From assembly GCA_964413645.1 (NCBI GenBank), contig CAYPSA010000004.1, positions 25,765-89,764 on the forward strand: 64,000 bases of DNA, in the 5' to 3' direction. Positions 2,099 through 24,035 of this stretch are shown here, piece by piece; position 1 is the stretch's first letter, and every line of letters begins with the position of its first letter. The DNA comes from an uncultured Gammaproteobacteria bacterium. Its GTDB lineage: Bacteria > Patescibacteriota > Microgenomatia > UBA1406 > HO2-37-13b. The notes beneath the pieces were generated by a model. That model saw only the letters and a list, made by a program, of their open reading frames with translations. It was not told the DNA's origin and searched no databases. Position numbers and translations under genes: made by a program.

Positions 2099-3425
2099 AA
2101 TAGTAATTGAATTTAATTCGTAAAGGCGTTCTGATACAATCAACCTATGAGTATTGCAGATCAGGAAGCAGAAGCATTTCAAAGCGGTGAACTCTTGCCC
2201 ACATATATAGAATATCTTTCATATAATGACGTATCACCTCAAACACCCCAAGAACACGAGAGCTATCTAAGTGGAAGCTTAAGCGCTCAACGATACACTG
2301 CGGAATTCAGAGCGATGATACTGAAGTATGGTGAGGACACGTTAGTTCTTGAAGCACGAAAGGCGGTCCAGGAATTGCGTAAAGCTTGTGATCAAATAGC
2401 AATCGAACCGAGTGTATATGGACAAAGTAAGTCGTGGTTTTTATGGCATGCTGCAAAAGAACGGTTCTTAGCAGAACATCCTGAGGCCCAGCAAACTATG
2501 CCAAATGCCGACAGATATTCACCAATTGATCCACTCAAATATAGAGATATCTCCGCTGCGCCTGATGAAAGAGCCCGCGCGAACAAAATGTTCGAGGAAA
2601 TCGTTAATAGTCATTTGGGCTGGGAAATACGACATGGATCGCCTACATCAAGTAGACCAGATTGGAATATCGCAGATCATCTGGATCCTGGAACGCCACC
2701 AGAAATCATCGCCGAAATCAACCAACTCATGCAGGAGCCGTTATCGGATGGGAGGCAAAGTCTTCCGGCTTACAAATTACAGCGATTAGGAGAATTAGTA
2801 ACAGCTCATCTTCCGCATGAAGATGGACAGCAATCAACCAGCATTGTTCATGTTCGGGAGCGCTTGTTAGACCGAATCAGACCGAGTCGGGCAATACAAA
2901 TATCCACCCCTCTGCGTCGTTCAGAACAAGGTCATTTCAGAGCAACGAATCGAGCACAATTTGAACGGGAAGCCCAAGCAGATGCAGGGACATTGGTCGT
3001 GGAATCATCATTTAATAACGTAGATGGTGGTACGGTAATAACATATACTGGACTCGGAAGATCGATTCAAAGACAAGAATGGAAATTTGATCCGACCGGC
3101 AAACTCGTTGGAATGTCACTTATTGATGCTGTCGATACTGAAGCCATGGGCGGAAATTTTTCTGGACAATCAGCCCGTACATATTTTACTAATCCTGACT
3201 TTCGCACTCAGAAACCTTCTGTAAGCACCGCACGAACGATCACTCTCGAGCGTGATCCTAATGATGAAAGCGTATTCAGGGTTGCTCCCGGCAGTGAAAA
3301 TTTTGACGGAGGATTAGTACAAAAATGGAATCAGCAGAGAGAGGCAAACAAATACAGATTGTTTTCAAGAAAAACTCCCTCTTCAAACGACGACTAGTTC
3401 ACATAGATGCAAGATCGAGAGATAC
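2099..3425. mobile_element. putative integrase-less single-gene insertion bounded by 23-bp direct repeats
   Basis: 1327 bp between the two repeat copies, carrying a single ORF. G+C is higher than in the flanking genes in hand-counted samples. Confidence 0.45.
2147..3397 (+). CDS. hypothetical protein (416 aa, no recognisable family, Lys-poor, Arg/Gln/Glu-rich)
   Basis: Long ATG-initiated ORF with TACAAT (2135-2140) 6 nt upstream of the ATG. No TM or signal peptide seen. Confidence 0.6.
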   Translation: MSIADQEAEAFQSGELLPTYIEYLSYNDVSPQTPQEHESYLSGSLSAQRYTAEFRAMILKYGEDTLVLEARKAVQELRKACDQIAIEPSVYGQSKSWFLWHAAKERFLAEHPEAQQTMPNADRYSPIDPLKYRDISAAPDERARANKMFEEIVNSHLGWEIRHGSPTSSRPDWNIADHLDPGTPPEIIAEINQLMQEPLSDGRQSLPAYKLQRLGELVTAHLPHEDGQQSTSIVHVRERLLDRIRPSRAIQISTPLRRSEQGHFRATNRAQFEREAQADAGTLVVESSFNNVDGGTVITYTGLGRSIQRQEWKFDPTGKLVGMSLIDAVDTEAMGGNFSGQSARTYFTNPDFRTQKPSVSTARTITLERDPNDESVFRVAPGSENFDGGLVQKWNQQREANKYRLFSRKTPSSNDD

Positions 3426-3448
3426 TTTAGCGGTATACAACGGGTTTT
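3426..3448. repeat. direct repeat copy 2 (last 7 codons plus stop of rpsA)
   Basis: Perfect 23-bp identity with 2076-2098; encodes ...KPVVYR* on the minus strand. Confidence 0.95.
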
Positions 3449-4560
3449 TCATGAGGGAGCAAAATGAGACTCATGCGGCGTTGAACGGTGTCAACCTTTT
3501 CTACATATACTTTAATTTTGTCGCCAATAGGAAGTTCTTTATCGTTAGTAATCTTGGAAATATGAATAAGTCCTTCGATACCTGGTTCTAGTCGAACGAT
3601 GTAGCCATATTTTTCTCGACGAATAAGTTCGCCTTCGAATTCTTTATCGGTTGGGTATTTCTTTTCAACATCATCCCAAGGATCTTTACTAAGTCTCTTC
3701 ACTGAAAGATTTAATTTAAAGTTTTCAAGATTCTTTTCAACAACAACCACATCAATTGTTTCCCCTTCCTTCAAATGAGTCTTTGGATCGCTGATTTTCT
3801 TCCATGAAATTTCAGAAATATGAATAAGTCCTTCAATATTTCCAACTTCACAAAAAACACCAAATTCAGTAAATCCAATAATGGTAGCCTTATATTTTTC
3901 GCCGACCTTAATACTATCGAATTCTTTATGAAGATCTTTATATGACAAGCCCATAACTGAAGCTTTTTGAGAAACAACGAGTCTATTTTTTGCACGGTCA
4001 ACTTCAAGAACTTTTACACGTACCTTTTGTCCTCGTAGTTTTTCAGGATTATTAATGAAATCTTTGGTAAGTTGGATTTTTGGAATGACTCCTCGAATTC
4101 CCATAAATTCAATGAATACGCCACCTTTGCCATAATCACCACATAATACGTCAATTTCTTCTTCACCTTTTTGTTTTTCTTCCAAAATGTCCCACTTACC
4201 TTTTTCAAAGAATTTGCGCATTGAAACGACCGGATATCCTTCTTTTGATTCTTCAACAACGATCCGAACTTTTACCATATCTCCTACTTTAAAGAATGGT
4301 AAGTATGTTGAAAGGTCAGCAGCCTCGAGTTGTCCTAAAACTGCATATGATTTCCATCCGATGTCGAATAAAATGCTCTTTTTTGTAATAGCAATGATTT
4401 TTCCTTCAATTTCAGATCCTTTTTTTGGTGGTTTGAAAGAATTTTTACTAAGCAAATCAGCCATAGAACCTGAAAGTGGTTTTTTTGCCTTAATTTCTTT
4501 TTGAACTACGGTTTCGGTAGCTTTTGCGGGTTTAGTAGTAGCAGCTTTTTTTGTTGGCAT
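3427..4560 (-). CDS. rpsA: 30S ribosomal protein S1-like (multiple S1 RNA-binding domains)
   Basis: 377 aa with repeated S1-domain signatures (G..v.G.V......G.fv..g...Glih.Se), for example GEKYKATIIGFTEFGVFCEVGNIEGLIHISEISW. AGGAGG lies upstream (4574-4579, revcomp). Confidence 0.8.
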   Translation of the reverse strand: MPTKKAATTKPAKATETVVQKEIKAKKPLSGSMADLLSKNSFKPPKKGSEIEGKIIAITKKSILFDIGWKSYAVLGQLEAADLSTYLPFFKVGDMVKVRIVVEESKEGYPVVSMRKFFEKGKWDILEEKQKGEEEIDVLCGDYGKGGVFIEFMGIRGVIPKIQLTKDFINNPEKLRGQKVRVKVLEVDRAKNRLVVSQKASVMGLSYKDLHKEFDSIKVGEKYKATIIGFTEFGVFCEVGNIEGLIHISEISWKKISDPKTHLKEGETIDVVVVEKNLENFKLNLSVKRLSKDPWDDVEKKYPTDKEFEGELIRREKYGYIVRLEPGIEGLIHISKITNDKELPIGDKIKVYVEKVDTVQRRMSLILLPHEKPVVYR

Positions 4561-4682
4561 TTCGTTAATTCGTCCTCCTTGATCGGTTTGATCAAGCTAT
4601 AGTATAGCAGAAAGTTGTGTAAAAACAATAATGAGTTTCATTCCTTTGCAGTAGACTGCTCTGTTTGGTATCATATAAATAT

Positions 4683-5327
4683 ATGAGTGCATCCGAAAGA
4701 GGAAAAATTGGTCTGCGTTTAGAGCGAACTGCTATGGCAAGTGAAGGCTGGACAACATGGGGGATGACTGAAGCAGATAAGGGGAGAGACGTTCTGCCTG
4801 GTATGATTGGATTTACTCGCGAAAATGTATTAGAAGGACTTGCTGCCAAGCCTCTCGGGTCAATTGCTGAGAGGACGCTACCAGATGTGGAGAATGGTAA
4901 TGGAATCCTTATTGCGGCCCCTTTACAAGGCGTCGATGGAATTGATAGGATTATTGGCTTTCTTCAGCCACAATTCAATCGGAAACGCGGACTAGACAGG
5001 TCTGCTCCAATACATTCATCTCTTACATACGTAGGGATTCGTACCAATGGTAGCTTAATGCAATCTAACCGGAGAGGTTTGTTTCAAATCGCATGGGAAC
5101 CACGCGTAGGCGAAAGACCAGACGAGTTATTCCTATCGCACGTATGGGGTTCGTTACCTATCGATCCAAGGAGCTTTATTTCCGACTCTGTTCTTCAAAC
5201 CGCTCAATGGGTAGAAGCAAATCCAAATGAAGATGGAACAATATTCGAGCTTCCAGATGAAATTGGACATCTAAAAGTACCACCTGTAATTATTGCGGGT
5301 TTTACAATGATGCGTATTCCAAGCTGA
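4683..5327 (+). CDS. hypothetical protein (about 214 aa, no recognisable family, higher G+C)
   Basis: The ORF track start at 4665 is TTG; the first ATG is 4683 (MSASERGK...). No TM. Composition resembles the other orphan genes. Confidence 0.5.
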   Translation: MSASERGKIGLRLERTAMASEGWTTWGMTEADKGRDVLPGMIGFTRENVLEGLAAKPLGSIAERTLPDVENGNGILIAAPLQGVDGIDRIIGFLQPQFNRKRGLDRSAPIHSSLTYVGIRTNGSLMQSNRRGLFQIAWEPRVGERPDELFLSHVWGSLPIDPRSFISDSVLQTAQWVEANPNEDGTIFELPDEIGHLKVPPVIIAGFTMMRIPS

Positions 5328-5334
5328 CAAGTTT

Positions 5335-6856: not shown

Positions 6857-9022
6857 TTACTTTTTTGGCTTGGCTTTAATCATTTGTATAATATCCGATC
6901 CTTGAAAATTCATACCATCTTTGAGTAATCCAGTAAGTGTGGCCGAGGTTGAAGAACACAAAAGCGATGTATCTTTCAATTTAAAATTGAATACTGCGTC
7001 CGGCCTACCATCTCTATTAATATCTTGGGTTAAATGAAACGCTTTATGCGTAATTGGATTGATAAATATGTTTCTAGCTCCAGCGAATGCAACCGAATTA
7101 TCATTAATATCTTTAACATCAAACATGTCTGTTCCTAGTACAGCAATCGGGATCATAAGGCCTGAATTATTGCAAAATCCAACATTATTCTTAACGTGTG
7201 GTTCAATATCAATTGTTACGCCTAATTTTAGGATGGTTTGTGCAGGCTGAGGATTGTAAATAAGTTTATATTTGTGTGTTGATTGTTCCGTATATGGATT
7301 ATGTTGTTCAAAAACTTTAATTTTCAATGTCCCAGAACTGTCAGACGCGTGCACCGCAAGAGGAATGTCTAGCAAGTCAGATGTAAGAGAAACAATGTAT
7401 TCTCCTGCCACAGGCGTTCCAATAGTTACCGTATTATTACTTGATGATAAGAGCGAGGAAGATAGATTGGCGTTTGGAATTTCCTCATTTACTCTTCCTT
7501 TTGGATCGGTTACTTGAATTTTCCCCGGATACTTTGTGGTAAATTCAAGAGAGCTAAAATCGCTCGCTGTTTTTTTATAGCGCCTTATTCCGAACGCACT
7601 GTTCGAATAAGGTTTTTGATTTAATCTCGAAATATCATTTCGCGGATCGTTAACAACAAATGTTTCCTGATCTATTCCGGTAATAAGCGCCCAGTGTTCA
7701 TTGTTTTGAACTTTTGCAACGACAGGCTGATCATTCTTAATATCCTCCGCGACTGTTTTTGGATCCCATTCCGTGCTTTTTGCATCACTGAAAGAAACAA
7801 TTTTTTGAGTTCCAAATTTTTTATTTGAATCAGCCGAATATCGATCGGCTGCAGACCAAATGACATTTCCAAATGCATATCCTTGACTCACGCACCCTGA
7901 AGAAACACATTGGGTATTTTTATTAAAGTACTCATTAAGTACTAGAGGACTTGTTTGTTTTCCATCGGGACTTTTGGTAACGCCGTGAAAGCTTAAAAGC
8001 ATTGACAAAGATGTAATAACACACCCGCAATCGGCAATTGTTTTACCGCAATTCAAAGGCTGTTTATCTGCGTTGCCATACAATTCATTTGCCCACAATT
8101 GATTGGTTTGCTTAACCAACGGAATATCTAAAATAAAGGGCGGCGGAGCAGAAGGTGTAAACACGACTACGCGATGATTTCGCGCATCTGCAACGTACAC
8201 TCTGCCCCGCCTATCAACTCCAGTGCCATGGGGGACATTAAGAATGCCTTCGCCAAACATGGTTAATAGTTGACCGTCTTTAGAATATTTCTCAACCCTA
8301 TTTTTATATGTATTTGCGACAAATATGTTGTCGTTTTGATCGATAAATAAGTCTTGTGCAAATGCAAACGAGCCCCATTGTGCAAGACGTATTCCTTGTG
8401 GTGTAAACTTCATTATTGAGTCGTTTGCCATAACATACACGTATCCTTGCGAGTCAACTCTCACAGCTTCCAAACGAGCATGAATATTTAAAACTCCGTT
8501 CGTTCCCCATGAAGTAATCGGGTTCCCAACTGAATCAAATTTTTCGATATAGTTATCTGCATGCACTGAGTACACATAATTATCTGGGCTCACGGCAATA
8601 CCTACTCCGCGTGGAGTAAAGTTTCCACCTTGCTCACCACGCCATTCCGTTAAATAGGTGCCATTTTTATCAAGTTTCACAATGCGATGATTATTTGTGT
8701 CGGCAATGTAAAAATTTCCGTCACTTCCTTGTGCGATTTTTTCGGGATTCTTAAAACCAGTCCATGCTGAAAGAACTTGCGCATTCTGATTAAATAATTG
8801 AATTCGATTATTCAAATAATCCGCAACCAAAACTCTTTCATCATAATCAACATACACATCAACGGGGAAATCAAAATATCCCAGACCAGATCCATACCCT
8901 TTCCAGATTTCAGATAATGAATATGTCGTTTCCGCAGCAATAATTGGGGAAACGAAAATGAATAGCGACAAGAATGTGACTGAAAACACTGATATTGCCA
9001 AACTAAAAAAGAGTCGGTTCAT
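6857..9022 (-). CDS. secreted NHL-repeat protein fused to a C39-like cysteine peptidase-type domain
   Basis: Signal/TM at the N-terminus. Repeated NHL motifs (LVADYLNNRIQLF, YIADTNNHRIVKL, FVANTYKNRVEKY, YVADARNHRVVVF), then CGKTIADCGCVITSLSMLL and NNEHWALITG (Cys/His of peptidase_C39_2-like domains), then a beta-rich C-terminus. Confidence 0.6.
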   Translation of the reverse strand: MNRLFFSLAISVFSVTFLSLFIFVSPIIAAETTYSLSEIWKGYGSGLGYFDFPVDVYVDYDERVLVADYLNNRIQLFNQNAQVLSAWTGFKNPEKIAQGSDGNFYIADTNNHRIVKLDKNGTYLTEWRGEQGGNFTPRGVGIAVSPDNYVYSVHADNYIEKFDSVGNPITSWGTNGVLNIHARLEAVRVDSQGYVYVMANDSIMKFTPQGIRLAQWGSFAFAQDLFIDQNDNIFVANTYKNRVEKYSKDGQLLTMFGEGILNVPHGTGVDRRGRVYVADARNHRVVVFTPSAPPPFILDIPLVKQTNQLWANELYGNADKQPLNCGKTIADCGCVITSLSMLLSFHGVTKSPDGKQTSPLVLNEYFNKNTQCVSSGCVSQGYAFGNVIWSAADRYSADSNKKFGTQKIVSFSDAKSTEWDPKTVAEDIKNDQPVVAKVQNNEHWALITGIDQETFVVNDPRNDISRLNQKPYSNSAFGIRRYKKTASDFSSLEFTTKYPGKIQVTDPKGRVNEEIPNANLSSSLLSSSNNTVTIGTPVAGEYIVSLTSDLLDIPLAVHASDSSGTLKIKVFEQHNPYTEQSTHKYKLIYNPQPAQTILKLGVTIDIEPHVKNNVGFCNNSGLMIPIAVLGTDMFDVKDINDNSVAFAGARNIFINPITHKAFHLTQDINRDGRPDAVFNFKLKDTSLLCSSTSATLTGLLKDGMNFQGSDIIQMIKAKPKK

Positions 9023-9060
9023 ATGGGTGCATATGATACTGACTCTTTTTTTTGAAGTCT

Positions 9061-9097
9061 ACGGTCTATAAGTCCCATTTATGGGACTTTGGGCCGT
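9061..9097. repeat. intergenic repeat/hairpin (acggtctataagtcccatttatgggactttgggccgt)
   Basis: Contains the hairpin aagtcccat/atgggactt. About 27 of 37 positions match 21589-21625, including the 12-mer tataagtcccat. Confidence 0.7.
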
Positions 9098-9107
9098 CAC
9101 AACAGTC

Positions 9108-9338
9108 TTACTTTTTCTTTGTACCAGTCTTCTTTTTTGCTTTTTTAGCCGTCTTTGGTTTCTTAGAAGTGACCTTTTTTACCAATTTTTTCTCAGCTGC
9201 AATTGCTTTTTTTCCTAGGCTCTTTGCAACTCTTACTGTTTTAGTTCTATTTTCTTTTTTTGAAAAAAATATTCCCGCAACAGTTGCGGCAACACCGGCA
9301 AGTACCATTCCAACGAGTCCTGCATTTTTCTTTGCCAT
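9108..9338 (-). CDS. small membrane protein with Lys-rich tail
   Basis: 76 aa with one TM (LVGMVLAGVAATVAGIFF) and a KKAKKK-rich C-terminus. GGAGGTG lies about 9 nt upstream. The overlapping plus-strand ORF 9052-9372 is rejected. Confidence 0.6.
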   Translation of the reverse strand: MAKKNAGLVGMVLAGVAATVAGIFFSKKENRTKTVRVAKSLGKKAIAAEKKLVKKVTSKKPKTAKKAKKKTGTKKK

Positions 9339-9395
9339 ATCAATACACCTCCCCCCAAATATTTCAAAATAATAAAAGTTTCGCCTACTTTTATA

Positions 9396-10121
9396 TTACA
9401 AATAAACTCGGGCAATAGTCAATGCATAAATATTTTTTGCTCCTTTCTTTTTTAATTCCTTGCAAAGTTCCGTTATTGTTGTTCCGGTAGTCCATACATC
9501 GTCGCAAATAATGAAATCTTTTCCTGAAATATTTTTTGTTACATAAAATGCGCCAGTAATATTTTTTTCTCGTTCTTCTTTTGATTTCATTTCTACTTGC
9601 GGCGTTGTATATTTCTCCCTTATGACGATTTCATTTTGTATTGGTATATTTAATTTTTCCGCAATGTTTTGAAAAAGTTTTTCTGATTGGTTAAATCCTC
9701 GATCTTTTTTTCTTTTCCTATGTAATGGAACTGGGATAAAGGAAATATCTGGAGATAAAGATTTGTAAAAGAGAATCTTGTCAAATGTGCTATTTGGAAT
9801 TACACCAATGATATCTTCAACCGCATCGTATACTAATCCGTACTTTATTTTTTTGATTAGCTTTTGCAACAAACTTTCGTATCGAAAAATACTTATACCT
9901 CCATCGAGTCCAAAATACTTCTTGCATCCGACATGAGTAATTCCCGCCATTGTACTTTTATTACAGTACATACATAAATCACTATTACTTAACACGAGAG
10001 TTTTAGCGCAATTTTTACATAGATATGCACCTATCCTATTACATCCAAAACAAAATTTAGGAAAGAAAATATTCTTAAGAATCTGAAAGATGTTTAGCGG
10101 CGAGCGTGTTTGGTTCGCCAT
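9396..10121 (-). CDS. comF: ComF family protein (zinc ribbon plus phosphoribosyltransferase fold)
   Basis: N-terminal CxxC...CxxC pairs (FCFGCNRIGAYLCKNC, CMYC) and the PRTase motif FIICDDVWTTGTT. Confidence 0.8.
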   Translation of the reverse strand: MANQTRSPLNIFQILKNIFFPKFCFGCNRIGAYLCKNCAKTLVLSNSDLCMYCNKSTMAGITHVGCKKYFGLDGGISIFRYESLLQKLIKKIKYGLVYDAVEDIIGVIPNSTFDKILFYKSLSPDISFIPVPLHRKRKKDRGFNQSEKLFQNIAEKLNIPIQNEIVIREKYTTPQVEMKSKEEREKNITGAFYVTKNISGKDFIICDDVWTTGTTITELCKELKKKGAKNIYALTIARVYL

Positions 10122-11977: not shown

Positions 11978-11991
11978 GGTATTATTATACT
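11978..11991. promoter_or_regulatory. 14-bp divergent intergenic region with two overlapping -10 boxes
   Basis: The sequence is ggtattattatact. TATTAT (11980-11985) lies 6 nt before the yidD ATG, and TATAAT (revcomp of 11984-11989) lies 6 nt before the trmD ATG. Confidence 0.5.
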
Positions 11992-12712: not shown

Positions 12713-13107
12713 GGGGATGAACGGTATCGACGGGAGGATCGCACGTTTACAAATCGCCAGGTCGGAGCTATTCGTTAAATAGCATACTAAATGCAGATAA
12801 CAAGTCTGTAGGTTCTTACGGTTACGGTTATGCATTTGCATAAACTTAATTGCTAAGACCCGTTTTCTTTCACGTTTTACTCTGTGTTTTACAGAAAGAA
12901 GGCGCCAACCAATACAGGGTGCGTAGTGTGTGGGTTTTAAAGCTAGTTTACTACACGCTTCAAAGATCTTATCGCAAGACAAGAACAAACAATTGTCGCT
13001 TTTTAAAATTGTTGATTATATAAAAAGCGTATAAATCATCTACACCTGGCTACACGATTGTAAAATTGCCCTTTCGGACCCGGGTTCAACTCCCGGCATC
13101 TCCACCA
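12713..13107 (+). ncRNA. ssrA: tmRNA (transfer-messenger RNA)
   Basis: The 5' end GGGGAUGAACGGUAUCGACGGG and the 3' end GGACCCGGGUUCAACUCCCGGCAUCUCCACCA form the tRNA-like domain. The internal tag frame gca gat aac aag tct gta ggt tct tac ggt tac ggt tat gca ttt gca taa gives ADNKSVGSYGYGYAFA*. Confidence 0.9.
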
Positions 13108-13111: not shown

Positions 13112-13495
13112 TCATTTCTTAAACAGACTCCTGAATATACTAAGAATCGAAGAAGAAGCGGACTTTCTTTCTGCAGCCGCCGGTACTACTTCAACAACGA
13201 CAGATGCTGAAGGAGGTAATTGATAACCAACTTCGCCGGCTAATTGATCTAACAGTTCCGCTCCTTTTTGAGTACGCGCAACTTGTTCTTGAGATAGTCC
13301 ACCAACTCGTCTTTCGGCTTCATCAAGACGAGCATTGGTCACTTCTAAATCTGCTTCCATTCCTGACCGAAGATCTCTTGGCCCACCAAGAGCGTTTTGA
13401 CCTACGACCGCTCTCATTCCAGCAAGACCACTTCCGGCTTCTAGCCTTAGTCCATTAGCCCTAGTAATTCTTGAAGATTCTCCATCTTCTGCCAT
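13112..13495 (-). CDS. hypothetical protein (127 aa, coiled-coil-like, higher G+C)
   Basis: ATG ORF ending 4 nt from the tmRNA 3' end. TAGAAT lies 6 nt upstream of the ATG. No family recognised. Confidence 0.45.
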   Translation of the reverse strand: MAEDGESSRITRANGLRLEAGSGLAGMRAVVGQNALGGPRDLRSGMEADLEVTNARLDEAERRVGGLSQEQVARTQKGAELLDQLAGEVGYQLPPSASVVVEVVPAAAERKSASSSILSIFRSLFKK

Positions 13496-13530: not shown

Positions 13531-14055
13531 TCAGATTTCCCGACGCTTGTTAGGAAAATCGCGAACAAATAATCGCTCTTCTTTAGAATATTTCATGTCC
13601 GATGAATGGACAAATTCGCGATATCTAGTCATTGCCTCGTCTGTCATATTCCCAATTCCCCGCATATTTATTACTGTTGGAATTACTAACCTAGTATAAG
13701 TTGTACCGGGATCTTGAATAAATTTTATGGATTGGTCTGCAAAATGGTCTACCCATCGCATTCCTGCTGAAACACGAATCCCTTTTTGCTTTGCTCCTTG
13801 AAGTTGTAAAACTTCTAAATCGTCGTTATCACACTCTTCGTAACTAATAACTGCACCTAAATGTTGTTTATATACAAGCGCCAGAGTAAAATCTCCAGCA
13901 ACCGGTGCTTTAAGACCTATTCTCGCCCCCCCCACTAACAATTGCGTCTCCAATTGTTCAACTTGTAGCGGCGGCATATCGCGATTTGAAATAATATACT
14001 GGCGATACTCTTCTGCTCTTGGCGGTGTCCATAACGCTTCTAAATTGTTTTTCAT
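13531..14055 (-). CDS. hypothetical protein (174 aa, higher G+C)
   Basis: ATG ORF with TGTATAAT 8 nt upstream. No TM and no recognised family. Confidence 0.5.
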   Translation of the reverse strand: MKNNLEALWTPPRAEEYRQYIISNRDMPPLQVEQLETQLLVGGARIGLKAPVAGDFTLALVYKQHLGAVISYEECDNDDLEVLQLQGAKQKGIRVSAGMRWVDHFADQSIKFIQDPGTTYTRLVIPTVINMRGIGNMTDEAMTRYREFVHSSDMKYSKEERLFVRDFPNKRREI

Positions 14056-15188: not shown

Positions 15189-16244
15189 TTATGAGCTCAA
15201 TCCTCGACGCTGCATTTCTCTCTTAATTCTAGCAAAGGCTCTTTCCTTGCTTTGATGGATCGCGTTTCTCGCTACCCCAAGCTTTCTTGCAATCTCGGCT
15301 TGTGACAACTCAACACCATCTTCTGTTAGTCCATAAAGAAGTCGTATTATTTCCAGCTCTCGAGGAGTAACAACATTAAGTAGCGAACTTACCAGATCCG
15401 ACATAGTTTCGTGGTCCATCTCTTCCAACACCAAACCTTCTACATCGGCTTCTTGAGAAATGTCTCTAATATGTCTTTCTAAAACATCTCCTGATCGACT
15501 CCCTGTCATCTCTAATGACGTGATTCTCGGCAAATTTAAACGCCGCATTACTTTCTTTATCGATAATCCAGAGGCTTCGGCAATTTCCACCAAAGTAGGA
15601 TCTATGTTTCCATTAAGCTGGAGCTCCTGTCTCGCCTTTTGTATGGAGTGTAGGTCTGTATGAACGTGGCGCGGGAGACGAATCATACCACCATATCCCT
15701 GAACAAATCTCTGCACATCCCGCTCTACTAAACCTAAACAATATGTTAATAGCGTAACATCACGGGCCATATCAAATCTATATATGTTTTCTTGATATGA
15801 TTGGAATCCCACCTGTAGGAGATCTTGTATGGGAATCCCTGAGGCTGCGTACCTTCTTACAGTCTTACTAATTACCCTCATGTCGGCCAACAAAATTCGT
15901 GCGACCGCGAGTCTTCCGTGCTCAATTTTATGTAGGTCTGATTCACTAGGGCTTGCCCCGGCATTTTTGATTTCTAAATAGCGCGCGTTTCCATCTTGAG
16001 CAATTTTAACAAGTTCTCGCTTGCGTATTTCATCAATCTGCGCTCCTTGCTTAACCGCTCCCGGGAGCACCTCTCCATCTTCGGGGAATCTAATTATAAG
16101 ACCTTGATCCTCGGTTATTGCTGATAGTAAATATAGTTCTCGCTGCAAAGCGACAGCACTGTTTAAATCAGGCTTAATTAAACGATCTGTAGTGCTGGTG
16201 TCTAATTGGGAAGGGAATCCGGTAAAATGATCTTCTTTTGACAT
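15189..16244 (-). CDS. divergent sigma-70 family protein
   Basis: Region 2-like DLLQVGFQSYQENIYRFDMARDVTLLTYCLGLVERDVQRFVQGYGGMIRLPRHV aligns to DLIQEGN.GL..A..KFD...G..FSTYA.WWIRQAI.R......R.IR.P.H. Region 4-like VTPRELEIIRLLYG...LSQAEIARKLGVARNAIHQSKERAFARIK. G+C is higher than in neighbours. Confidence 0.7.
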   Translation of the reverse strand: MSKEDHFTGFPSQLDTSTTDRLIKPDLNSAVALQRELYLLSAITEDQGLIIRFPEDGEVLPGAVKQGAQIDEIRKRELVKIAQDGNARYLEIKNAGASPSESDLHKIEHGRLAVARILLADMRVISKTVRRYAASGIPIQDLLQVGFQSYQENIYRFDMARDVTLLTYCLGLVERDVQRFVQGYGGMIRLPRHVHTDLHSIQKARQELQLNGNIDPTLVEIAEASGLSIKKVMRRLNLPRITSLEMTGSRSGDVLERHIRDISQEADVEGLVLEEMDHETMSDLVSSLLNVVTPRELEIIRLLYGLTEDGVELSQAEIARKLGVARNAIHQSKERAFARIKREMQRRGLSS

Positions 16245-16359: not shown

Positions 16360-17709
16360 ATGATAAAATGTGGCATGCGTATTCAGAAAATCAACTCTTT
16401 ATTATTCTTTCTGTTTTTCCTCCTCCTCCCAACACAACTAGGGAAACATTTCTTTTTGGATTTTTCGTATGTGAATGGGGTCAGGATAGATTATTTAGCG
16501 CCTACTCTCTATTTGATAGATTTTGTAGTTGTTGCGCTAATGGTAGTTAATTGGAAGGTGGTATGGGGATCCCTAGTCAACGCTCTGAGATTTCTCACTG
16601 CGTTCGAAATGACAAAGGTATCGCTCAGAATGACAAAGGGAGACGCGATGACAAAGAGAGACATGGTGACAAAGTGGTTAGGGATAACAGTACTCGCTCT
16701 GGTGGGAATGAATATTGTATTAGCACAGGAACCGATTATGGCTCTGTATATGGCAGTGAGATATGTGGAGATGTGGGTGGTGTTTGTTCTTGTCCGAAAC
16801 CTTTACGAGCTCCGGGGGCTCGTAAAACCGTTGTTTATTGGAGTAGTAATTCAATTCGGATTATCAATTTATCAAATATCCGCCCAGCATAGTGCGCATG
16901 GAATTTTTTATTGGCTCGGCGAGCGAGCATTCTCTATTTCCACGCCTGGAATTGCAACCATTTCCCTCTTCGACACAATCGCTTTGCGCCCATACGGAAC
17001 ATTCTCACATCCGAATAGTTTAGGAGGATTTTACGCATTGTCTTATGTGTTTTTTTTGATGAGCCAGCTTAAGCTCCCCCGACGTATAGAGATAATGAGG
17101 TATGGAATATTACTATTAAGTGGATTTTTAGTGCTCATGTCGTTTTCGAAAGTGGCTATTGGAGCCGTGTTACTCACCACGCTCTATTACGTACTCCGTG
17201 TTTTAAAAATAAATTGTCGGTGGTGCAAATGGGGTCGCGTGTTTATGTTGGGTATCATTTCTCTCATTTTTCTTAGTGGGAAATCTGACGTCGCATCGCT
17301 CGACAAGAGAGTTGCGTTAACCCAATCCTCTCTCCATACGATTGCAAATTATCCATTCTTCGGAACCGGCCTGGGAAACTCGTTGTATTCCCAGAGTGTT
17401 ATGAGTCAACAGCTTCCCTATTTTTTCCTGCAGCCGGTACATAATATTTTCTTGCTGTTTATAAGTGAGGCAGGATTATTACTAAGTGCTGTTATAGCTC
17501 TCATTGCGTGGAGAGAGATAAAAGGAAAGAAGAAGGATGACCCTTCGGCTTCGCTCAGGGTTAACAAGAAGCGTGTGCTACTCTCTATCATAGCCGTGAT
17601 CGTTATCACTGGAATGCTTGATCATTACTGGCTAACGTTAATTCAAAATCAACTTGCGTTAGCAGCGTTTTTAGGAGTTGGAATAGGAATAAAGAGGGCG
17701 ACTACCTAG
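16360..17709 (+). CDS. O-antigen ligase-like (Wzy_C) polytopic membrane protein with in-frame repeat insertion
   Basis: About 12 TM helices. Contains YGTFSHPNSLGGFYAL and LGERAF..STPGIA motifs typical of O-antigen ligase-like proteins. Codons covering 16585-16673 derive from a dispersed repeat. Confidence 0.6.
   Translation: MIKCGMRIQKINSLLFFLFFLLLPTQLGKHFFLDFSYVNGVRIDYLAPTLYLIDFVVVALMVVNWKVVWGSLVNALRFLTAFEMTKVSLRMTKGDAMTKRDMVTKWLGITVLALVGMNIVLAQEPIMALYMAVRYVEMWVVFVLVRNLYELRGLVKPLFIGVVIQFGLSIYQISAQHSAHGIFYWLGERAFSISTPGIATISLFDTIALRPYGTFSHPNSLGGFYALSYVFFLMSQLKLPRRIEIMRYGILLLSGFLVLMSFSKVAIGAVLLTTLYYVLRVLKINCRWCKWGRVFMLGIISLIFLSGKSDVASLDKRVALTQSSLHTIANYPFFGTGLGNSLYSQSVMSQQLPYFFLQPVHNIFLLFISEAGLLLSAVIALIAWREIKGKKKDDPSASLRVNKKRVLLSIIAVIVITGMLDHYWLTLIQNQLALAAFLGVGIGIKRATT
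16585..16673. repeat. GTCATYC-family repeat (inverted orientation) plus four tandem (R)ATGACAAAG heads, inside a CDS
   Basis: ctgagatttctcactgcgttcgaaatgacaaagg is followed by tcgctcagaatgacaaagg, gcgatgacaaag and ggtgacaaag. The first unit is the reverse complement of the gtcatttcgaac...gagaaatctc type seen at 19765-19843. Confidence 0.85.
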
Positions 17710-19551: not shown

Positions 19552-19764
19552 ACGAAAATGTTGATCGAGTAAAAGCGAAGGGGTTAATCGATTATTTTTG
19601 CAGCAAAACAGGCGCCAGTTGAATGGCGGAAAGCATGAATCGTGTTTTGATGATGGAAATAAACGGTGGTAACCATGTAGCTTTTATTCGAAAAATAACA
19701 AATAATTTCTAATTGGGAATATTATACCACAGATCGGATTATTGGATTACAAAAAGAAGTTGTT

Positions 19765-19843
19765 TGTCATTTCGAGCCTTCGCCAACTGGCGAAAGGCGA
19801 GAAATCCCGGGTTCTGAGATTGCTCACTCTGTTCGAAATGACA
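19765..19843. repeat. full-length GTCATYC-family element with 10-bp terminal inverted repeats
   Basis: tgtcatttcga...gccttcgccaactggcgaaaggc...tcgaaatgaca. The ends gtcatttcga and tcgaaatgac are perfectly complementary. The recX stop codon lies inside the element. Confidence 0.85.
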
Positions 19844-20330
19844 CGAGAGCATGTTTGATGACGTCGAAAGAAAATCCGCGACGTAGAAGCAGATCGGTGG
19901 CTTTTTTGCGATATGTTGCAGGGTCGTACATGGAGAGTGTTCGTTGTTTTTTGAGAAGTACTTGTTTGGCTAATTCTACTTCATCAAGTTCGCTTTTTGA
20001 GAAAAATACGTCTAAATCATCTTGTTTTATTCCTTTTGCACGAAGTTCTGCAATAAGTCCTCTTTTCCCCCGCGGCCTAAAGGAACTTCGATTTTCGACC
20101 CACCATTTTATAAAAGAGTTGTCATTCAGAAAATCTAACTTTGTCAATTTCTGAATAACTCTTTCAACGAAGGTTTCTTTATCCGCAATCGCCAGAGCAT
20201 ACTCAATAGCTTTTTTGTTTAGATAGAGCTGCATTTCGTGAACACTCCTCGGTCTACCACTTATGAGTTTTGTGCTCATGCCAAATATGATTTGTTCAGC
20301 TTCGTGTTCGGTCATATGCGTATCCAGCAA
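19824..20330 (-). CDS. recX: recombination regulator RecX
   Basis: 168 aa helical-repeat protein immediately downstream of recA, with RecX-like segments (...YLNKKAIEY..., ...LLRRGFSFDVI...). Confidence 0.7.
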   Translation of the reverse strand: MLDTHMTEHEAEQIIFGMSTKLISGRPRSVHEMQLYLNKKAIEYALAIADKETFVERVIQKLTKLDFLNDNSFIKWWVENRSSFRPRGKRGLIAELRAKGIKQDDLDVFFSKSELDEVELAKQVLLKKQRTLSMYDPATYRKKATDLLLRRGFSFDVIKHALVSFRTE

Positions 20331-20332
20331 TG

Positions 20333-20396
20333 CTGAGATCCTTCGACTCCCTTCGGTCGCTCAGGATGACAAAGGTACCGATCAGGACGACAAAGG
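20333..20396. repeat. GTCATYC-family repeat (inverted orientation) with duplicated GACAAAGG head
   Basis: ctgagatccttcgactcccttcggtcgctcaggatgacaaaggtaccgatcaggacgacaaagg fills the recA-recX intergenic region. Confidence 0.85.
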
Positions 20397-20397
20397 C

Positions 20398-21486: not shown

Positions 21487-21588
21487 AAATAAATTAAGAA
21501 CTTATAGATTGTACCCGACGGCACATACTGTACATTTACGTGTTGCGGGTGGTACGGCCCATGATAAAATATCACTGTGACAATGTCA

Positions 21589-21625
21589 ACGGCTTATAAG
21601 TCCCATAAGTGATGGTTTAGGGCGT
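21589..21625. repeat. second copy of the tataagtcccat-containing repeat
   Basis: acggcttataagtcccataagtgatggtttagggcgt, compared with 9061-9097. Confidence 0.7.
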
Positions 21626-21671
21626 TAGGACAACGTATATCGTCGTTTATAGTAAGCGAATTCTGTGCGTA

Positions 21672-21742
21672 CGGGGAGTAGTATAATGGTAGAATGCGCC
21701 GCTGGGGGTGGTGCGGTCCGGGTTCAATTCCCGGCTCCCCGA
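21672..21742 (+). tRNA. tRNA-Pro (anticodon GGG)
   Basis: Acceptor CGGGGAG/CUCCCCG with C1:G72 and A73 (the bacterial Pro pattern). Anticodon stem CGCCG/UGGUG and loop CUGGGGG. T arm CCGGG-UUCAAUU-CCCGG. No encoded CCA. Confidence 0.8.
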
Positions 21743-21758
21743 CACGAAAGACGGGTCA

Positions 21759-22397
21759 TTATTTTGATTTAGGCTGAATAAGAGGGATTAATCGCACAGA
21801 TTCATCAAGCTTATAATTCAGGGCCCAACCCAATACTCTCCTATTATCCTCTTCGATACTAACTGTCATTACGCCTACAGATGTAAGTATGGGACCTCCA
21901 AACACTGATAAATTGTCTGTTTCCTGGACCAAAAGCACTGTTTCAAGATAGTCTCGTGGGGTACCCAAGAAAACCTCACCCAATCTATTTCCGGTCTGTA
22001 CATTTTCACCAAGAAACAAAGCGCGTTCATCAAAATAGAGAAGGATATCTTCTGGATCAATAAAATTTTCAGGTACCACTTCGGTAAATTGTGGGTGAAA
22101 TGCAATTGATCGTTGTGGTGTCCTAACATCAAGCACGGTCCTCAACTTATGATTCACATCTGGTGAAACCTGTCCTATTAGATTGCGTAACGTATTTCCA
22201 GAATGTTCAACAATAACATACCCACTATCCAATAGTGATGTGCGCTCATTATCAAAAAAGTGACGCGGGCGATTATTAGGATCAATAGGAACATCTCCTC
22301 CAAGAATCTCACGAACTTCTCTAAGTTTTGTAATTGCCTCCTCTGCCTGTTCTGGCCGATATCCACGACGTATAGCCCCAATCGCTCTTTCTAGCAT
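21759..22397 (-). CDS. hypothetical protein (212 aa, higher G+C)
   Basis: ATG ORF with TATAAT 9 nt upstream. No family recognised. Shares an xF(H/L)xPQF motif at the same position as the 4665/4683-5327 product. Confidence 0.5.
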   Translation of the reverse strand: MLERAIGAIRRGYRPEQAEEAITKLREVREILGGDVPIDPNNRPRHFFDNERTSLLDSGYVIVEHSGNTLRNLIGQVSPDVNHKLRTVLDVRTPQRSIAFHPQFTEVVPENFIDPEDILLYFDERALFLGENVQTGNRLGEVFLGTPRDYLETVLLVQETDNLSVFGGPILTSVGVMTVSIEEDNRRVLGWALNYKLDESVRLIPLIQPKSK

Positions 22398-22421
22398 ATG
22401 GTGCGTATTATATCTCAGTCA

Positions 22422-24035
22422 TTACTCGCTTTTGTCTTGTTGTGAGCGCACAATCATGCTCCACAACCTCTCTTCCGCGTCGCTACCCCACCCACCACCA
22501 ACAATTTTTGAAACAGCTGCAACAACCGCACGAACGGAATAGTGTAGTATTTCTCCGGCTTTTTGCCCATAGGTTACATATATTTGCTCGGGTATAGCAG
22601 CATAGGTGCCATACATAGGAATTAGTGTTGTGCGCGCTGCTCTTTTAAGATCTGTTTCCGACATTGTGTCTACTACTGCCGTAGAAACCGCACGAAGAAT
22701 CCCGGGCGCAAAAATATTAAAAATAGACACTAATCCAATATTCCTAGCTGGATTTTCCGATGTGGCTGCAGCCACTCCCATAGGCACCGTCATCACGTCA
22801 ACAGCACGAGCGACCACCATATAGTAAGTACTCATACCCAAATACACAGCCATATCTTTTCTAGAAACCTTTTCAAGTGCCTGCTCAAGTTGCTCTGTAG
22901 AAACAAGACCCTGCGCGTGAGCCTGTTTCATCCCGAGCAGTATTGAGTTGTTCACGAGTGCTTTTGATAAATGACTTCTGTCCGTTGCTAATTTTGAAAC
23001 ACTTTCGTGAAATTCCGGACTCCTCAACAATTTTAGCTTTGAGTCACCACAAAAATCTAAGAACGCTTGTACTCCAAGCCTTGCAACCTCTTTTGTGCGA
23101 AATATTTCAAAAGCACGTGGAGAACGACGTAAATGTTCTGCTTGTTGTGGGCTAATTAAACCCCTCTCTTGTGCATCTTGAATGTAAAGATTGCGAGGAT
23201 CACCCGAAATAGCATCTTGATATCGTTTTGAGGCATCGTCATATAGCTCCATCGCTTCTGTAAGACCGTCAAAATCCTCAAAAGAAATACTGCTCGATCG
23301 TTTTGCAAGACTCTTTCTAAGCATGCTTGTATGGATACGATTATATGTCGACCCTAAAGAACCAAACGTTTTTCGAACATCATCATGGAACCCGAAGTTC
23401 AAAATTGGCCTTACATGTGCGGTGTGCCTAAACACAGGTAAATAATCGTGCCAAATAACACTTCCGTCCTGGGCAAGCCATAAATTAGGTTTCCCAAAGG
23501 GATTGCGCGGATGAACCTGTGCAACATGCTCTGAGCCAAGTGTTGTAGCAAGTCCCCACAGATCCTGCCGTGCTTGGCGAATTTTCGCGTTTTCTTTTCC
23601 ACCATCGTTAAAAATAGTGCCTCTCCCGTATGTTCTCTCTGCATGTTGCCCGTATCCCAATTCTCGACTCACACGAACATATCCATGAGCTTGCGGGGTA
23701 TGAACTTGTCCATCAGTAAAAATCGGAACTGCTTGATGGAGAATTCTCCCTGCTAAATAGTCTAATTGCGCAGCAGATTCAAAAGCTCGAGAAGGAAAGG
23801 GTATGTCCCAATTTAATACACGTAAAGCTTCGTGCAGCGCGTCGGGGGTAGTAGTTTTAATCACCGAATCGGGCAAGACAATAACACTTCCAAAGAAACC
23901 ATTTCCCGTTATGTGCTCGACTGGTTCAGAAATGGGCTGTTCAACTATTCCTTGTGATGTTACCTGCTTGCTTACAAAATCAAATGGTTCACCTTCAACA
24001 ATGCCCGCTCTATGAATATGTTCGTGACGTGACAT
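22422..24035 (-). CDS. atypical protein-kinase-like (UbiB/ABC1-like) protein with hydrophobic C-terminal segments
   Basis: Gly-rich loop GNGFFGSVIVLPDSVIK (GxGxxGxV...K). VHPRNPFGKPNLWL..DGSVIWHDY resembles the HPGN...DFG core of ABC1/APH-type kinases. C-terminal hydrophobic stretches (AVYLGMSTYYMVVARAV, IGLVSIFNIFAPGIL). TATAAT lies 6 nt before the ATG. Confidence 0.45.
   Translation of the reverse strand: MSRHEHIHRAGIVEGEPFDFVSKQVTSQGIVEQPISEPVEHITGNGFFGSVIVLPDSVIKTTTPDALHEALRVLNWDIPFPSRAFESAAQLDYLAGRILHQAVPIFTDGQVHTPQAHGYVRVSRELGYGQHAERTYGRGTIFNDGGKENAKIRQARQDLWGLATTLGSEHVAQVHPRNPFGKPNLWLAQDGSVIWHDYLPVFRHTAHVRPILNFGFHDDVRKTFGSLGSTYNRIHTSMLRKSLAKRSSSISFEDFDGLTEAMELYDDASKRYQDAISGDPRNLYIQDAQERGLISPQQAEHLRRSPRAFEIFRTKEVARLGVQAFLDFCGDSKLKLLRSPEFHESVSKLATDRSHLSKALVNNSILLGMKQAHAQGLVSTEQLEQALEKVSRKDMAVYLGMSTYYMVVARAVDVMTVPMGVAAATSENPARNIGLVSIFNIFAPGILRAVSTAVVDTMSETDLKRAARTTLIPMYGTYAAIPEQIYVTYGQKAGEILHYSVRAVVAAVSKIVGGGWGSDAEERLWSMIVRSQQDKSE

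Follow-up and report, generated by a model that had tools for sequence, protein, structure and literature searches.

Integration at the 3′ ends of tRNA, tmRNA, and protein-coding genes is known from a class of small genomic islets and integrative elements, whose att sequence rebuilds the target. Flexible genomic islands and hypervariable slots are swapped by homologous recombination via their conserved flanks, and recombining populations undergo gene-specific sweeps. A further group of systems is defined by protein composition: the A chains of ER-translocating AB toxins and the "lysine desert" proteins are depleted of lysine, a property tied to ubiquitin systems.

Seven ORFs (o1–o7) within the window—the whole 64,000-nt stretch of DNA analysed here, derived from a genome of the Microgenomates, tiny-celled members of the CPR—can be compared with each of these. 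All seven lie where the preliminary description had placed them and are called genes in public assemblies, as established by exact-sequence look-up; the same look-up returned the ATG at 4683 as the start of o2. They are genuine protein genes, each apparently transcribed independently from a predicted −10 box of its own, and they alternate with stable-RNA genes and with core genes that evolve slowly, and do not form one block of foreign DNA. In comparisons with five related Microgenomates assemblies (related contigs are few, and the set of genomes compared differs slot by slot), each of the seven evolves unlike its adjoining core genes with respect to presence or absence, identity, or synonymous divergence (dS). 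Their histories are nevertheless heterogeneous, comprising insertions (o1 and o6), hyper-divergent genes (o2, o3, and o4), and near-identical genes (o5 and o7). The reading favoured here, with a probability of about 0.6, is that the seven represent a part of the genome that is specific to the lineage, evolves fast, and is exchanged horizontally, that their lysine-poor make-up is selected, and that they are not the contribution of one foreign source.

The preliminary description had set these ORFs apart as G+C-rich and lysine-poor, and it is the second property that stands in full. The G+C content is higher (0.40–0.46 per gene, with a mean of 0.436, versus 0.393 in the 54 other ORFs and 0.352 in rpsA; Mann–Whitney p = 3e-4), albeit by a much smaller margin than hand-counted values of roughly 40–57 percent had implied. 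This excess is confined to codon positions 1 and 2 (GC1 0.575 versus 0.492; GC2 0.420 versus 0.358), while GC3 is the same in the seven and the rest (0.312 versus 0.330; p = 0.47). Lysine makes up 3.5% of residues versus 8.1% and arginine 8.4% versus 4.3% (each p about 1e-6), and the ratio K/(K+R) is 0.21–0.39 versus 0.65, falling below 0.40 in all seven but in just two of the 54 other ORFs. Of the remaining residues said to be enriched, Gln (p = 0.005) and Glu (p = 0.04) are mildly so but His is not (p = 0.29); FYMINK residues are scarcer and GARP residues commoner. AGR triplets account for 44% of Arg codons in the seven versus 21% in the rest (chi-square p = 2e-9), and outside Arg no difference in synonymous usage was found. 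The whole dinucleotide signature deviates to an extent matched by none of 500 random gene sets; that of the codon 3–1 junction shows no deviation and is native (p = 0.29). The "foreign" look thus stems from protein make-up, with Arg in place of Lys and a preference for AGR codons, and not from a foreign DNA signature. Two other ORFs in the window are also lysine-poor: one is T4SS-pilin-like, and the other may be a membrane protein, judging by an extended hydrophobic stretch.

Relatives' homologues of o2, o3, o4, o5, and o7 retain the lysine-poor make-up, and because homologues only about 25%–45% identical keep it, it appears to be under selection. Accessory genes that share these slots in relatives (TA pairs, an S26 peptidase, and a 234-aa ORF of contig L085) are not lysine-poor, and "accessory" and "lysine-poor" are therefore different sets. 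Proteins strongly favouring Arg over Lys within an otherwise Lys-using proteome recall the lysine-depleted proteins; the ubiquitin tie, however, belongs to the AB-toxin A chains and lysine deserts.

The clearest insertion is that of o1. A repeat search identified an exact 23-nt direct repeat, TTTAGCGGTATACAACGGGTTTT, whose left copy (2076–2098) adjoins the 5S gene and whose right copy (3426–3448) provides the last codons and stop of rpsA. Between them lies a unit of 1,327 bp (2099–3425, plus strand) that has no counterpart in relatives and contains an extended −10 box, TGATACAAT (2132–2140), and o1 itself (2147–3397, plus strand; 416 aa). The 23-nt sequence is single-copy in L086 and L090, and o1 is missing from five relatives (L086, L090, L101, L102, and L104), where the gap between rpsA and 5S is about 170 bp. 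The duplication therefore marks o1 as an insertion here, not a deletion elsewhere. Despite o1, rpsA remains intact and is 98% identical to that of L086. This single-gene unit of 1.3 kb would have entered the last rpsA codons through a duplicative and probably site-specific event. The position in these codons, the repeat that restores the rpsA end, and the absence from relatives are all shared with 3′-end islets; unlike these, the unit is a single gene, and no recombinase, terminal inverted repeat, or excised form of it was found. The N-terminal domain of o1 (residues 15–222) has 80 homologues among representatives and occurs N-terminally, C-terminally, or internally in modular proteins whose length reaches 1,831 aa. 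It is all-alpha, with an AF2 pLDDT above 93, and has no fold match in PDB or BFVD.

A second segment absent from relatives adjoins tRNA-Pro(GGG) (21672–21743, plus strand), a conserved anchor recognised by ARAGORN and Rfam. The segment, of 714 bp (21746–22459, minus strand), begins 2 nt past the 3′ end of the tRNA and contains o6 (21759–22397, minus strand; 212 aa) with its own −10 box, together with a replaced 3′ end of o7. L083 and L085, which count as two independent relatives (L084 duplicates L083), lack o6 and have about 55 bp in its place. The breakpoints are clean, as are those of the o1 unit, and no repeat flanks the segment. A homologue of o6 was not found in the sets compared, which include phage, plasmid, and viral-contig sequences and are narrower than a database-wide search. 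We treat o6 as a single-gene insertion or replacement beside tRNA-Pro. Proximity to conserved 3′ ends, which had been proposed for the whole group, holds for four of the seven: o1, in the last rpsA codons (with respect to the 5S gene it lies on the 5′ side, and not at the 3′ end as described); o2, with 8 nt between it and the comM stop; o3, separated from the tmRNA 3′ end by 4 nt; and o6, 15 nt from that of tRNA-Pro. The others (o4, o5, and o7) sit one gene further in.

Three genes keep their slots but not their sequences. In the slot between comM and rpsA, o2 (4683–5327, plus strand; 214 aa) is oriented divergently from rpsA, and the homologues that occupy this slot with the same orientation in L086, L101, L102, and L104 are 23%–26% identical (E 1e-8 to 1e-12), all with a K/(K+R) of 0.18–0.38; the flanking rpsA and comM are 98% and 91% identical, respectively, to those of L086. 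The tmRNA gene (12713–13107, plus strand; ARAGORN and Rfam) is a conserved anchor on one side of a variable island; the island comprises o3, o4, and an EamA-type transporter, and its contents differ in L086 and L098. Here, o3 (13112–13495, minus strand; 127 aa), which is rich in Ala, Gly, Glu, and Arg, converges on the tmRNA 3′ end. Its same-position counterpart in L098, an ORF of 115 aa, is 34% identical in a global alignment, with BLAST covering the first 21 residues only (E 0.58), and matches its composition (K/(K+R) 0.29; GC3 0.25), so that positional homology rests more on position and composition than on sequence. The fast-evolving o4 (13531–14055, minus strand; 174 aa), between tmRNA and the sigma gene, is 42% identical (E 8.5e-38) to a 217-aa ORF of the same L098 island, whose flanks, sigma and smpB, are 87% and 99% identical at the amino acid level. 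Overall, across the related contigs compared, identity in these three slots is only about 25%–44%, compared with 84%–99% in flanking genes, and the genes may either diverge extremely fast or be replaced by distant alleles. The dN/dS ratio is 0.19–0.41 for o2, o4 (0.19), o5, and o7, and 0.72 for o3 against its counterpart.

The opposite pattern is seen in o5 (15189–16244, minus strand; 351 aa) and o7 (22422–24035, minus strand; 537 aa), which are 92%–98% identical to their counterparts at the DNA level, with a dS of 0.07–0.17 compared with 0.4–2.2 in neighbours. For o5, dS is 0.17 versus 1.1–1.7 in adjoining genes; for o7, which is syntenic in L083 and L085 (97% amino acid and 98% nucleotide identity), it is 0.07 versus 0.6–2.2. 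Sliding-window identity to both relatives is at least 95% over a tract (22451–24151) that spans o7 and ends just inside trxB. An alternative sigma factor (o5) and o7 may thus have been exchanged recently between otherwise diverged genomes, probably by homologous recombination across the conserved flanks; comF and comM, both in the window, are competence genes of this lineage. Conserved flanks around alleles that are either very divergent (o2, o3, and o4) or nearly identical (o5 and o7) recall flexible islands, as does the occupation of these slots in relatives by unrelated genes, TA modules among them. Unlike in such islands, each slot holds one or two small genes and not a multi-gene cluster, and the genes share a lysine-poor make-up, with a sigma factor among them.

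Further high-identity tracts were, however, detected inside trxB and rpsA, so that ordinary mosaic recombination that happened to hit o5 and o7 could account for their low dS. This bears on a purely native origin: the seven would be lineage-specific proteins passed on vertically, with a make-up that follows from function; relatives would have lost by deletion what they lack; and the dS contrasts would stem from recombination tracts that fell by chance, with no relation to the class. Positional homologues for five of the seven, along with GC3 and codon usage of native type, are consistent with it; the duplication around o1 is not, and vertical drift alone would hardly produce identities of 25%–45% beside flanks of 84%–99%. 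In a comparison of 20 conserved gene pairs, moreover, the two protein genes with the lowest dS are exactly the two conserved lysine-poor ones, and we consider this origin unlikely.

Selection on make-up could also be read as a sign of export. The products would then be effectors delivered to a host cell or to the cell surface, for example via the T4SS-like system at 25.6–28.8 kb, with lysine avoidance providing escape from lysine-directed modification or proteolysis and an arms race driving diversification. The retention of make-up despite extreme sequence turnover, the signs of diversification and recent exchange, the recurrence of the o1 domain at varied positions in modular proteins, the conserved PrgI/TraC-like/VirB4 cluster nearby, and the nature of the two further lysine-poor ORFs are all compatible with this. 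Signal peptides were nevertheless not seen at any of the seven N-termini, the domain searches gave no match to known toxins, effectors, or immunity proteins, and a sigma factor is unlikely to be exported; export of the group is thus distinctly improbable.

The preliminary description had itself proposed a single foreign donor or accessory regulon, delivered piecemeal into conserved 3′ ends and transcribed by the divergent sigma factor from a promoter distinct from TATAAT. The compositional class, the atypical evolution, and the two insertions beside rpsA and tRNA-Pro survive from this proposal, and the make-up and AGR preference common to all seven, the four genes abutting 3′ ends, and the divergence of o5 speak in its favour. 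The single donor, the special promoter, and piecemeal delivery of all seven find no support: GC3, non-Arg synonymous usage, and junction dinucleotides are native, the seven show no sequence similarity when compared with each other, and their phylogenetic spreads differ from gene to gene. Positional homologues of five genes (o2, o3, o4, o5, and o7) exist in relatives, and members of the o7 family occur in several Microgenomates lineages with other genes around them. Although o3/o4 and o6 directly follow tmRNA and tRNA-Pro as islets would, neither RNA end is duplicated, no integrase was found, and searches with the seven and with the o1 family gave no relatives among phages, plasmids, or viral contigs. 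The −10 boxes of all seven are ordinary and TATAAT-like and lie 6–15 nt before the ATG; many other genes here have such a box too, although the proportion is lower (16 of the 54 other ORFs; Fisher p = 6e-4). A common donor or regulon is accordingly very improbable. An artefact, in which some of the ORFs (o3 and o6 above all) would not be genes, is extremely improbable: the missing homologue of o6 and the dN/dS of o3 would fit, but open frames of 127–212 codons in 40% G+C DNA, a coding-type gradient (GC1 > GC2 > GC3), private −10 boxes at the right distance, and the conserved composition of the o3 counterpart would not.

Six of the seven products match no family in Pfam, NCBIfam, PADLOC, or PHROG, as the preliminary description had anticipated; the exception is o5, the sigma-like product, which is indeed a divergent sigma-70 family protein (regions 1.2–4). 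Pfam Sigma70_r4 is matched at E 2.6e-10, with r2 and r3 slightly under cut-off, and NCBIfam TIGR02937 above it. Like group 1/2 factors (SigA, RpoS, and SigB), o5 aligns across regions 1.2 to 4 with SigA and RpoS structures, its best PDB matches (about 1e-17), and also with cyanobacterial RpoD-family models. Unlike them, it falls far below every equivalog cut-off, RpoD and RpoS models included (e.g., RpoD_Cterm, 80 versus 354 bits), is about 25% identical to SigA as estimated from PDB match scores, and has a single homologue below 1e-20 among 5.8 billion proteins (L098; 87% identity).

The kinase-like product, o7, is a conserved protein restricted to Microgenomates, with only ten homologues (32%–97% identity), one of them labelled Roizmanbacteria. 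Its AF2 model has a pLDDT of 72 and a helical C-terminal half. Most of the Foldseek PDB matches listed, including all of the best, are protein-kinase-like folds (eukaryote-like kinases, aminoglycoside phosphotransferases, and Legionella Lpg2603), albeit at non-significant scores (E at least 0.14; TM about 0.2), and no Pfam kinase model matches. No canonical HxD catalytic Asp stands out, but some of the invariant motifs are reminiscent of a Gly-rich loop (GxFxG), a Lys (VIK), and an HPxNP...N...D segment, and the modelled N-terminal half is possibly protein-kinase-like.

Seven ORFs of the window, o1 to o7, are united by a lysine-poor, arginine-rich make-up and by flexible-genome behaviour: insertion, allele turnover, and recent exchange. 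They lie at 2147–3397 (o1) and 4683–5327 (o2) on the plus strand and at 13112–13495 (o3), 13531–14055 (o4), 15189–16244 (o5), 21759–22397 (o6), and 22422–24035 (o7) on the minus strand; as the preliminary description had it, all seven are present, and all are called genes in public data. The first 32 kb of the window otherwise contains rpsA, comM, comF, trmD, smpB–tmRNA, HU, RNase Y, recX, recA, and trxB, followed by a PrgI/TraC-like/VirB4 cluster, dnaN, and dnaA, with an isolated 5S gene, one tmRNA, and tRNA-Pro as its RNA genes. Direct abutment on 3′ ends, proposed for the whole set, applies to four ORFs (at rpsA, comM, tmRNA, and tRNA-Pro) and not to the other three. The 5S rRNA gene (1933–2052, minus strand) is solitary, the 64 kb containing neither a 16S nor a 23S gene, and is 97%–100% identical across relatives.

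The genome is of the CPR/Patescibacteria: the label ‘Microgenomates group bacterium’ is attached to a cluster mate of a gene next to the set. By exact look-up, the sequence was traced to an NCBI contig of 110,986 bp and to the Logan assemblies of SRR8893623 and SRR8893624. Syntenic contigs of related Microgenomates were obtained through cluster look-ups and exact-protein look-ups. These comprised L083 (GCA_038127095.1), L084, and L085; L086–L089 (from ENA), L090 (GCA_034680565.1), and L098; and L101–L105, which include GCA_964422025.1 and GCA_049662945.1. Each comparison draws on few relatives, and the set differs from slot to slot, a slot being a place between conserved genes where content varies. 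Core genes of the window and these relatives share 70%–99% protein identity and about 68%–92% DNA identity. A genome scan anchored on RecA reached best loci of only 55%–65% identity, without homologues of any of the seven, because RecA is too conserved for this purpose.

The seven ORFs were compared with the 54 other ORFs of the window, whose overall G+C is 0.40. Their proteins are Lys-poor and Arg-rich, as first proposed, and the signal is strong: Lys makes up 3.5% of residues against 8.1%, and Arg 8.4% against 4.3% (both p about 1e-6), and the Lys share of Lys plus Arg, K/(K+R), is 0.21–0.39 against a mean of 0.65 (p = 4e-5). Just two other ORFs fall below 0.40, at 1346–1909 and 50202–50660, the next value up being 0.50, and the first 24 kb holds eight of the nine Lys-poor ORFs. 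Gln and Glu are slightly raised, as had been suggested, but His is not. The higher G+C first reported is a real, modest excess in codon positions 1 and 2 (0.436, range 0.40–0.46, against 0.393; p = 3e-4), far below the hand-counted 40%–57%. A compositional difference thus exists, and it lies in protein make-up with a small G+C excess. G+C at codon position 3 (GC3) is 0.312 in the seven and 0.330 in the others (p = 0.47), and overall synonymous codon usage is no different (scaled chi-square p = 0.36), the sole synonymous difference being the share of AGA plus AGG (AGR) among Arg codons, at 44% against 21% (chi-square p = 2e-9). The overall dinucleotide signature is unlike that of random gene sets; that of codon 3–1 junctions, the dinucleotide measure least dependent on protein make-up, shows no difference (p = 0.29). 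Since GC3, codon usage other than the AGR share, and junction dinucleotides are all native, unlike those expected of recently acquired foreign DNA, the distinctness resides in protein composition and not in a DNA mutational signature.

The same make-up recurs in homologues of o2, o3, o4, o5, and o7 elsewhere, with K/(K+R) of 0.18–0.38, AGR shares of 44%–61%, and low GC3; it is retained even at 25%–45% sequence identity, and the toxin–antitoxin (TA) and core genes adjoining those homologues in relatives are Lys-rich. Lys-poor members predominate in the o7 family, and the o1 family is mixed. From these sequence comparisons we infer that selection acts on the Lys-poor, Arg-rich composition. A derivation of the AGR-coded arginines from former Lys codons is ruled out, these residues aligning with Lys in homologues no more often than do CGN-coded arginines.

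Each of the seven has a TATAAT-like box (at least five of six matches) 6–15 nt before its ATG, at 6–9 nt in six cases, compared with 16 of the 54 other ORFs (p = 6e-4), and only o5 has a Shine–Dalgarno-like motif, a weak AGGA. With their own −10 boxes in a layout like that of core genes, the seven appear to be self-contained transcription units with an ordinary −10. A shared promoter distinct from TATAAT, part of the original proposal, is therefore not borne out, as the seven use the same −10 element as many core genes. A generic promoter and terminator scan gave no excess over shuffles. The leaderless layout is common in the window, the −10 box ending at most about 20 nt before the ATG (usually 5–10 nt) in 23 of 61 ORFs; examples lie at 1910–1920, 11978–11990, and 56930–56942, and trmD is an example among core genes. 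A Shine–Dalgarno-like motif precedes only 5 of the 61.

One of the insertions is o1. Homology to L086 and L090 ends at 2098 and picks up at 3422, with the two flanks contiguous in those relatives, and the o1 DNA lies between two exact copies of a 23-nt direct repeat, TTTAGCGGTATACAACGGGTTTT, at 2076–2098 and 3426–3448. The right copy provides the last codons and the stop of rpsA; relatives carry a single copy. The gene is missing from five relatives (L086, L090, L101, L102, and L104). The broken homology and the bracketing repeat, single in relatives, mark o1 as a 1.3-kb one-gene insertion, placed at the 3′ end of rpsA by a duplicative event.

On its sequence features, o1 fits site-specific-like duplicative integration. 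Of the att-like direct repeats that mark an integrase-type island, an exact copy duplicating the target 3′ end, including the rpsA stop, is seen for o1. Presence varies among relatives, as that of such islands does, for o1, for o6, and for the content of the tmRNA island (the tmRNA-to-sigma stretch with o3, o4, and an EamA-type transporter gene), which differs in L086 and L098. The tmRNA island and the segment beside tRNA-Pro have no duplicated target 3′ end. No recombinase or integrase was found among the non-overlapping ORFs of at least 90 aa scanned between 1.3 and 29.9 kb, the repeat used as an att-site query had no match in JGI metagenomes, and no flanking repeats were found around the other orphans or around o1-family genes elsewhere. 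An insertion sequence or MITE agrees poorly with the o1 unit, in which neither terminal inverted repeats nor a transposase family match were found and whose 23-nt duplication exceeds the usual target duplications of insertion sequences.

When 1.84 billion representatives were searched exhaustively with HMMER, o1 had 81 matches at E ≤0.001, 80 of them besides o1 itself. Nearly all fall on residues 15–222, a domain found in about 80 protein clusters and carrying the motifs YLSY.DV, SWFLWHAAK, Y.P.DP, LGWE, and LSSYKL..LG. AlphaFold models it as all-alpha (pLDDT >93), and Foldseek with this model found no significant match in PDB or BFVD. The domain occurs alone, N-terminally, C-terminally in proteins of 500–900 aa, or internally in proteins of 1,755 and 1,831 aa, and Pfam domains are nearly absent from the family. 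The C-terminal part of o1 (residues 254–409) matches a few small proteins and the repeats of an adhesin-like giant. With regard to a possible polymorphic toxin or modular effector, the domain does lie C-terminally or internally in these larger proteins; no known delivery or toxin domains were found in the family, and no immunity candidate adjoins o1. In other CPR contigs, o1-family genes lie among core genes (in L097, one is upstream of dnaA), and a scan of metagenomes yielded two loci only, one of them already known. The two longest proteins, P0047 and P0050 (1,755 and 1,831 aa), carry the domain near residues 316–540; Pfam finds almost nothing in them, and they are an uncharacterised giant-protein family.

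Beside tRNA-Pro, a segment at 21746–22459 carrying o6 begins 2 nt past the tRNA and stands in place of about 55 bp in L083 and L085, a stretch that takes in the final eight codons of o7. The gene is missing from both relatives, and a search for a flanking repeat found none.

Other members of the set occupy fixed slots and are highly divergent. Homologues of o2 in L086, L101, L102, and L104 have the same position and strand, divergent from rpsA, and are 23%–26% identical to it (E 1e-8 to 1e-12), while the flanking rpsA and comM share 98% and 91% identity, respectively, between the window and L086; the homologues are 45% identical among themselves. In the tmRNA island, o4 shares 42% identity (E 8.5e-38) with a 217-aa ORF of L098; for o3 and its positional counterpart there, BLAST covers the first 21 residues only and is not significant (E 0.58), and a global alignment gives 34%. 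The L098 island also contains a MazE–PIN pair (L098 2772–3406), which is Lys-rich, and an S26 peptidase. The comM–rpsA slot of L101 (7228–7893), and that of L102 and L104, holds a Gp49/HigB-like and HTH pair of normal Lys-rich make-up. The same slot in L090 (8600–9780) has about 1.1 kb at 62% G+C in a genome of roughly 37%; its minus-strand ORF 8811–9779 (322 aa, GC3 0.83, signal-peptide-like N terminus) looks like the real gene, and the DNA either was truly acquired from a foreign high-G+C source or is a chimera of the assembly. In the interval from recX to RNase Y, L085 has a 234-aa ORF without a Pfam family (7016–7720) where the window has 117 bp only (19729–19846), which makes this a further variable single-gene slot.

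The opposite pattern is seen for o5 and o7, which have the two lowest dS values among 20 conserved gene pairs compared. Against L083 and L085, o7 shows 97% protein identity and 98% DNA identity; its dS is 0.07, compared with 0.6–2.2 for the genes around it, among them trxB, recA, RNase Y, VirB4, and dnaN. The high-identity tract spans 22451–24151, beginning at the o6 breakpoint and ending just within trxB. Against L098, o5 shows 87% protein identity and 92% DNA identity (dS 0.17), with adjoining genes at 1.1–1.7. Shorter high-identity tracts also occur within trxB and rpsA, so that mosaic recombination is general in this group. One of these, at 24551–24901 in trxB, is at least 95% identical to L083 and L085; DNA of 75%–88% identity lies between it and the o7 tract, a pattern that points to mosaic recombination between the lineages of the window, L083, and L085.

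Six of the seven could be placed in none of the families of Pfam, NCBIfam, PADLOC, or PHROG, in keeping with the first impression, and the only match to PADLOC, Pfam, and NCBIfam models of defence and TA systems is that of o5 to the MzaA sigma portion. The product of o5 belongs to the sigma-70 family, with regions 1.2–4 and regions 2, 3, and 4 in order. In Pfam, region 4 scores 40.1 bits (cut-off 24.1), regions 3 and 2 score 24.7 and 21.3, both just below cut-off, and NCBIfam TIGR02937 scores 46.7 (cut-off 42.9); it aligns full-length to SigA structures at about 1e-17. For RpoD_Cterm, it scores 79.9 bits where the cut-off is 354, with the RpoD and RpoS cut-offs far out of reach, and a single homologue was found at E <1e-20. 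A primary RpoD/SigA sigma factor is poorly matched by scores below the RpoD equivalog cut-offs and by orthologues that are not widely conserved; o5 resembles an alternative sigma factor restricted to its lineage.

For o7, ten homologues were found in 5.8 billion proteins, at 32%–97% identity and in varied gene contexts, one of them labelled ‘Candidatus Roizmanbacteria’; there was no Pfam match and no PDB sequence match. Foldseek hits for its model (pLDDT 72) are for the most part kinases and aminoglycoside phosphotransferases, none significant (E ≥0.14), and its invariant motifs fit the protein-kinase-like set (Gly-rich loop, catalytic Lys, HxD...N, DFG-type Asp) only partly. The o7 proteins are a Microgenomates-only family that, by weak structural inference, may be kinase-like.

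CPR bacteria have many unannotated genes, and it is hard to tell which matter for symbiosis; the group is usually regarded as streamlined and static. Taken jointly, the data allow a reading, improbable as a whole at about 0.12, in which the Lys-poor genes form a new CPR host-interaction class in which selection acts on composition and not on sequence, Lys being avoided against Lys-directed host or environmental attack. Its members would be kept diverse or be swept from species to species by recombination, some would be one-gene, self-promoted, leaderless cassettes (the o1 unit with its att-like 23-nt repeat), and o5 may co-travel. A putative export or effector role of the Lys-poor proteins is compatible with the data. 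Searches of the literature for variable regions in CPR genomes, effectors poor in lysine, and leaderless genes of Patescibacteria found nothing directly relevant.

The alternative first put forward, a distinct class delivered piecemeal from one foreign source, stands as to the class, which is real, but fails as to the single source: the DNA signature is native, the seven are mutually unrelated, and five have positional homologues in relatives. Their placement beside conserved genes and stable RNAs fits recombination via conserved flanks, together with insertion into intergenic spaces between convergent 3′ ends, where it does no harm. A high-G+C donor is ruled out by the low GC3 and by Arg codons that are AGR-rich and not CGS-rich. 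A phage or plasmid origin was likewise rejected, as tblastn against phages and plasmids with o1–o4 and o6 and IMG/VR scans with o6, o7, o5, and the o1 family gave nothing, PHROG matches were to generic sigma families for o5 only, and o1 has no significant BFVD fold.

A simple signature of low Lys/Arg, native GC3, a private leaderless promoter, and a place next to conserved anchors flags genes of three kinds: insertions, hyper-divergent genes, and genes recently exchanged between species. Should the signature hold across the whole genome, candidate host-interaction genes could be shortlisted cheaply, and gene-specific exchange across species would be shown in CPR. Leads include the o1 alpha domain without PDB or viral-structure match, the o7 family, and the insertion of a single gene, o1, which has a 23-nt duplication and lacks a recombinase.

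Of the two further Lys-poor ORFs, that at 1346–1909 (minus strand, 187 aa, K/(K+R) 0.23) has a long hydrophobic stretch, and in relatives a DUF5657 gene comes after it, its identity being about 76% against 94%–98% for the nearby rpsA; that at 50202–50660 weakly matches the type 4 secretion system (T4SS) pilin family PF18895 (E 1e-5, just below cut-off). The T4SS-like cluster (PrgI-like, TraC-like, VirB4) at 25624–28780 adjoins dnaN and dnaA and is kept in L083, L085, and L097. Finally, a repeated element with the core GTTCGAAATGACAAAGG has five matches against 0.22 expected, with 31-nt pairs 87%–90% identical, at 16584–16639, 19761–19777 (minus strand), 19813–19847, and 20366–20396. It lies in the N-terminal part of a 449-aa ORF and on either side of recX; its position within the former suggests that the annotated start of that ORF may be wrong.
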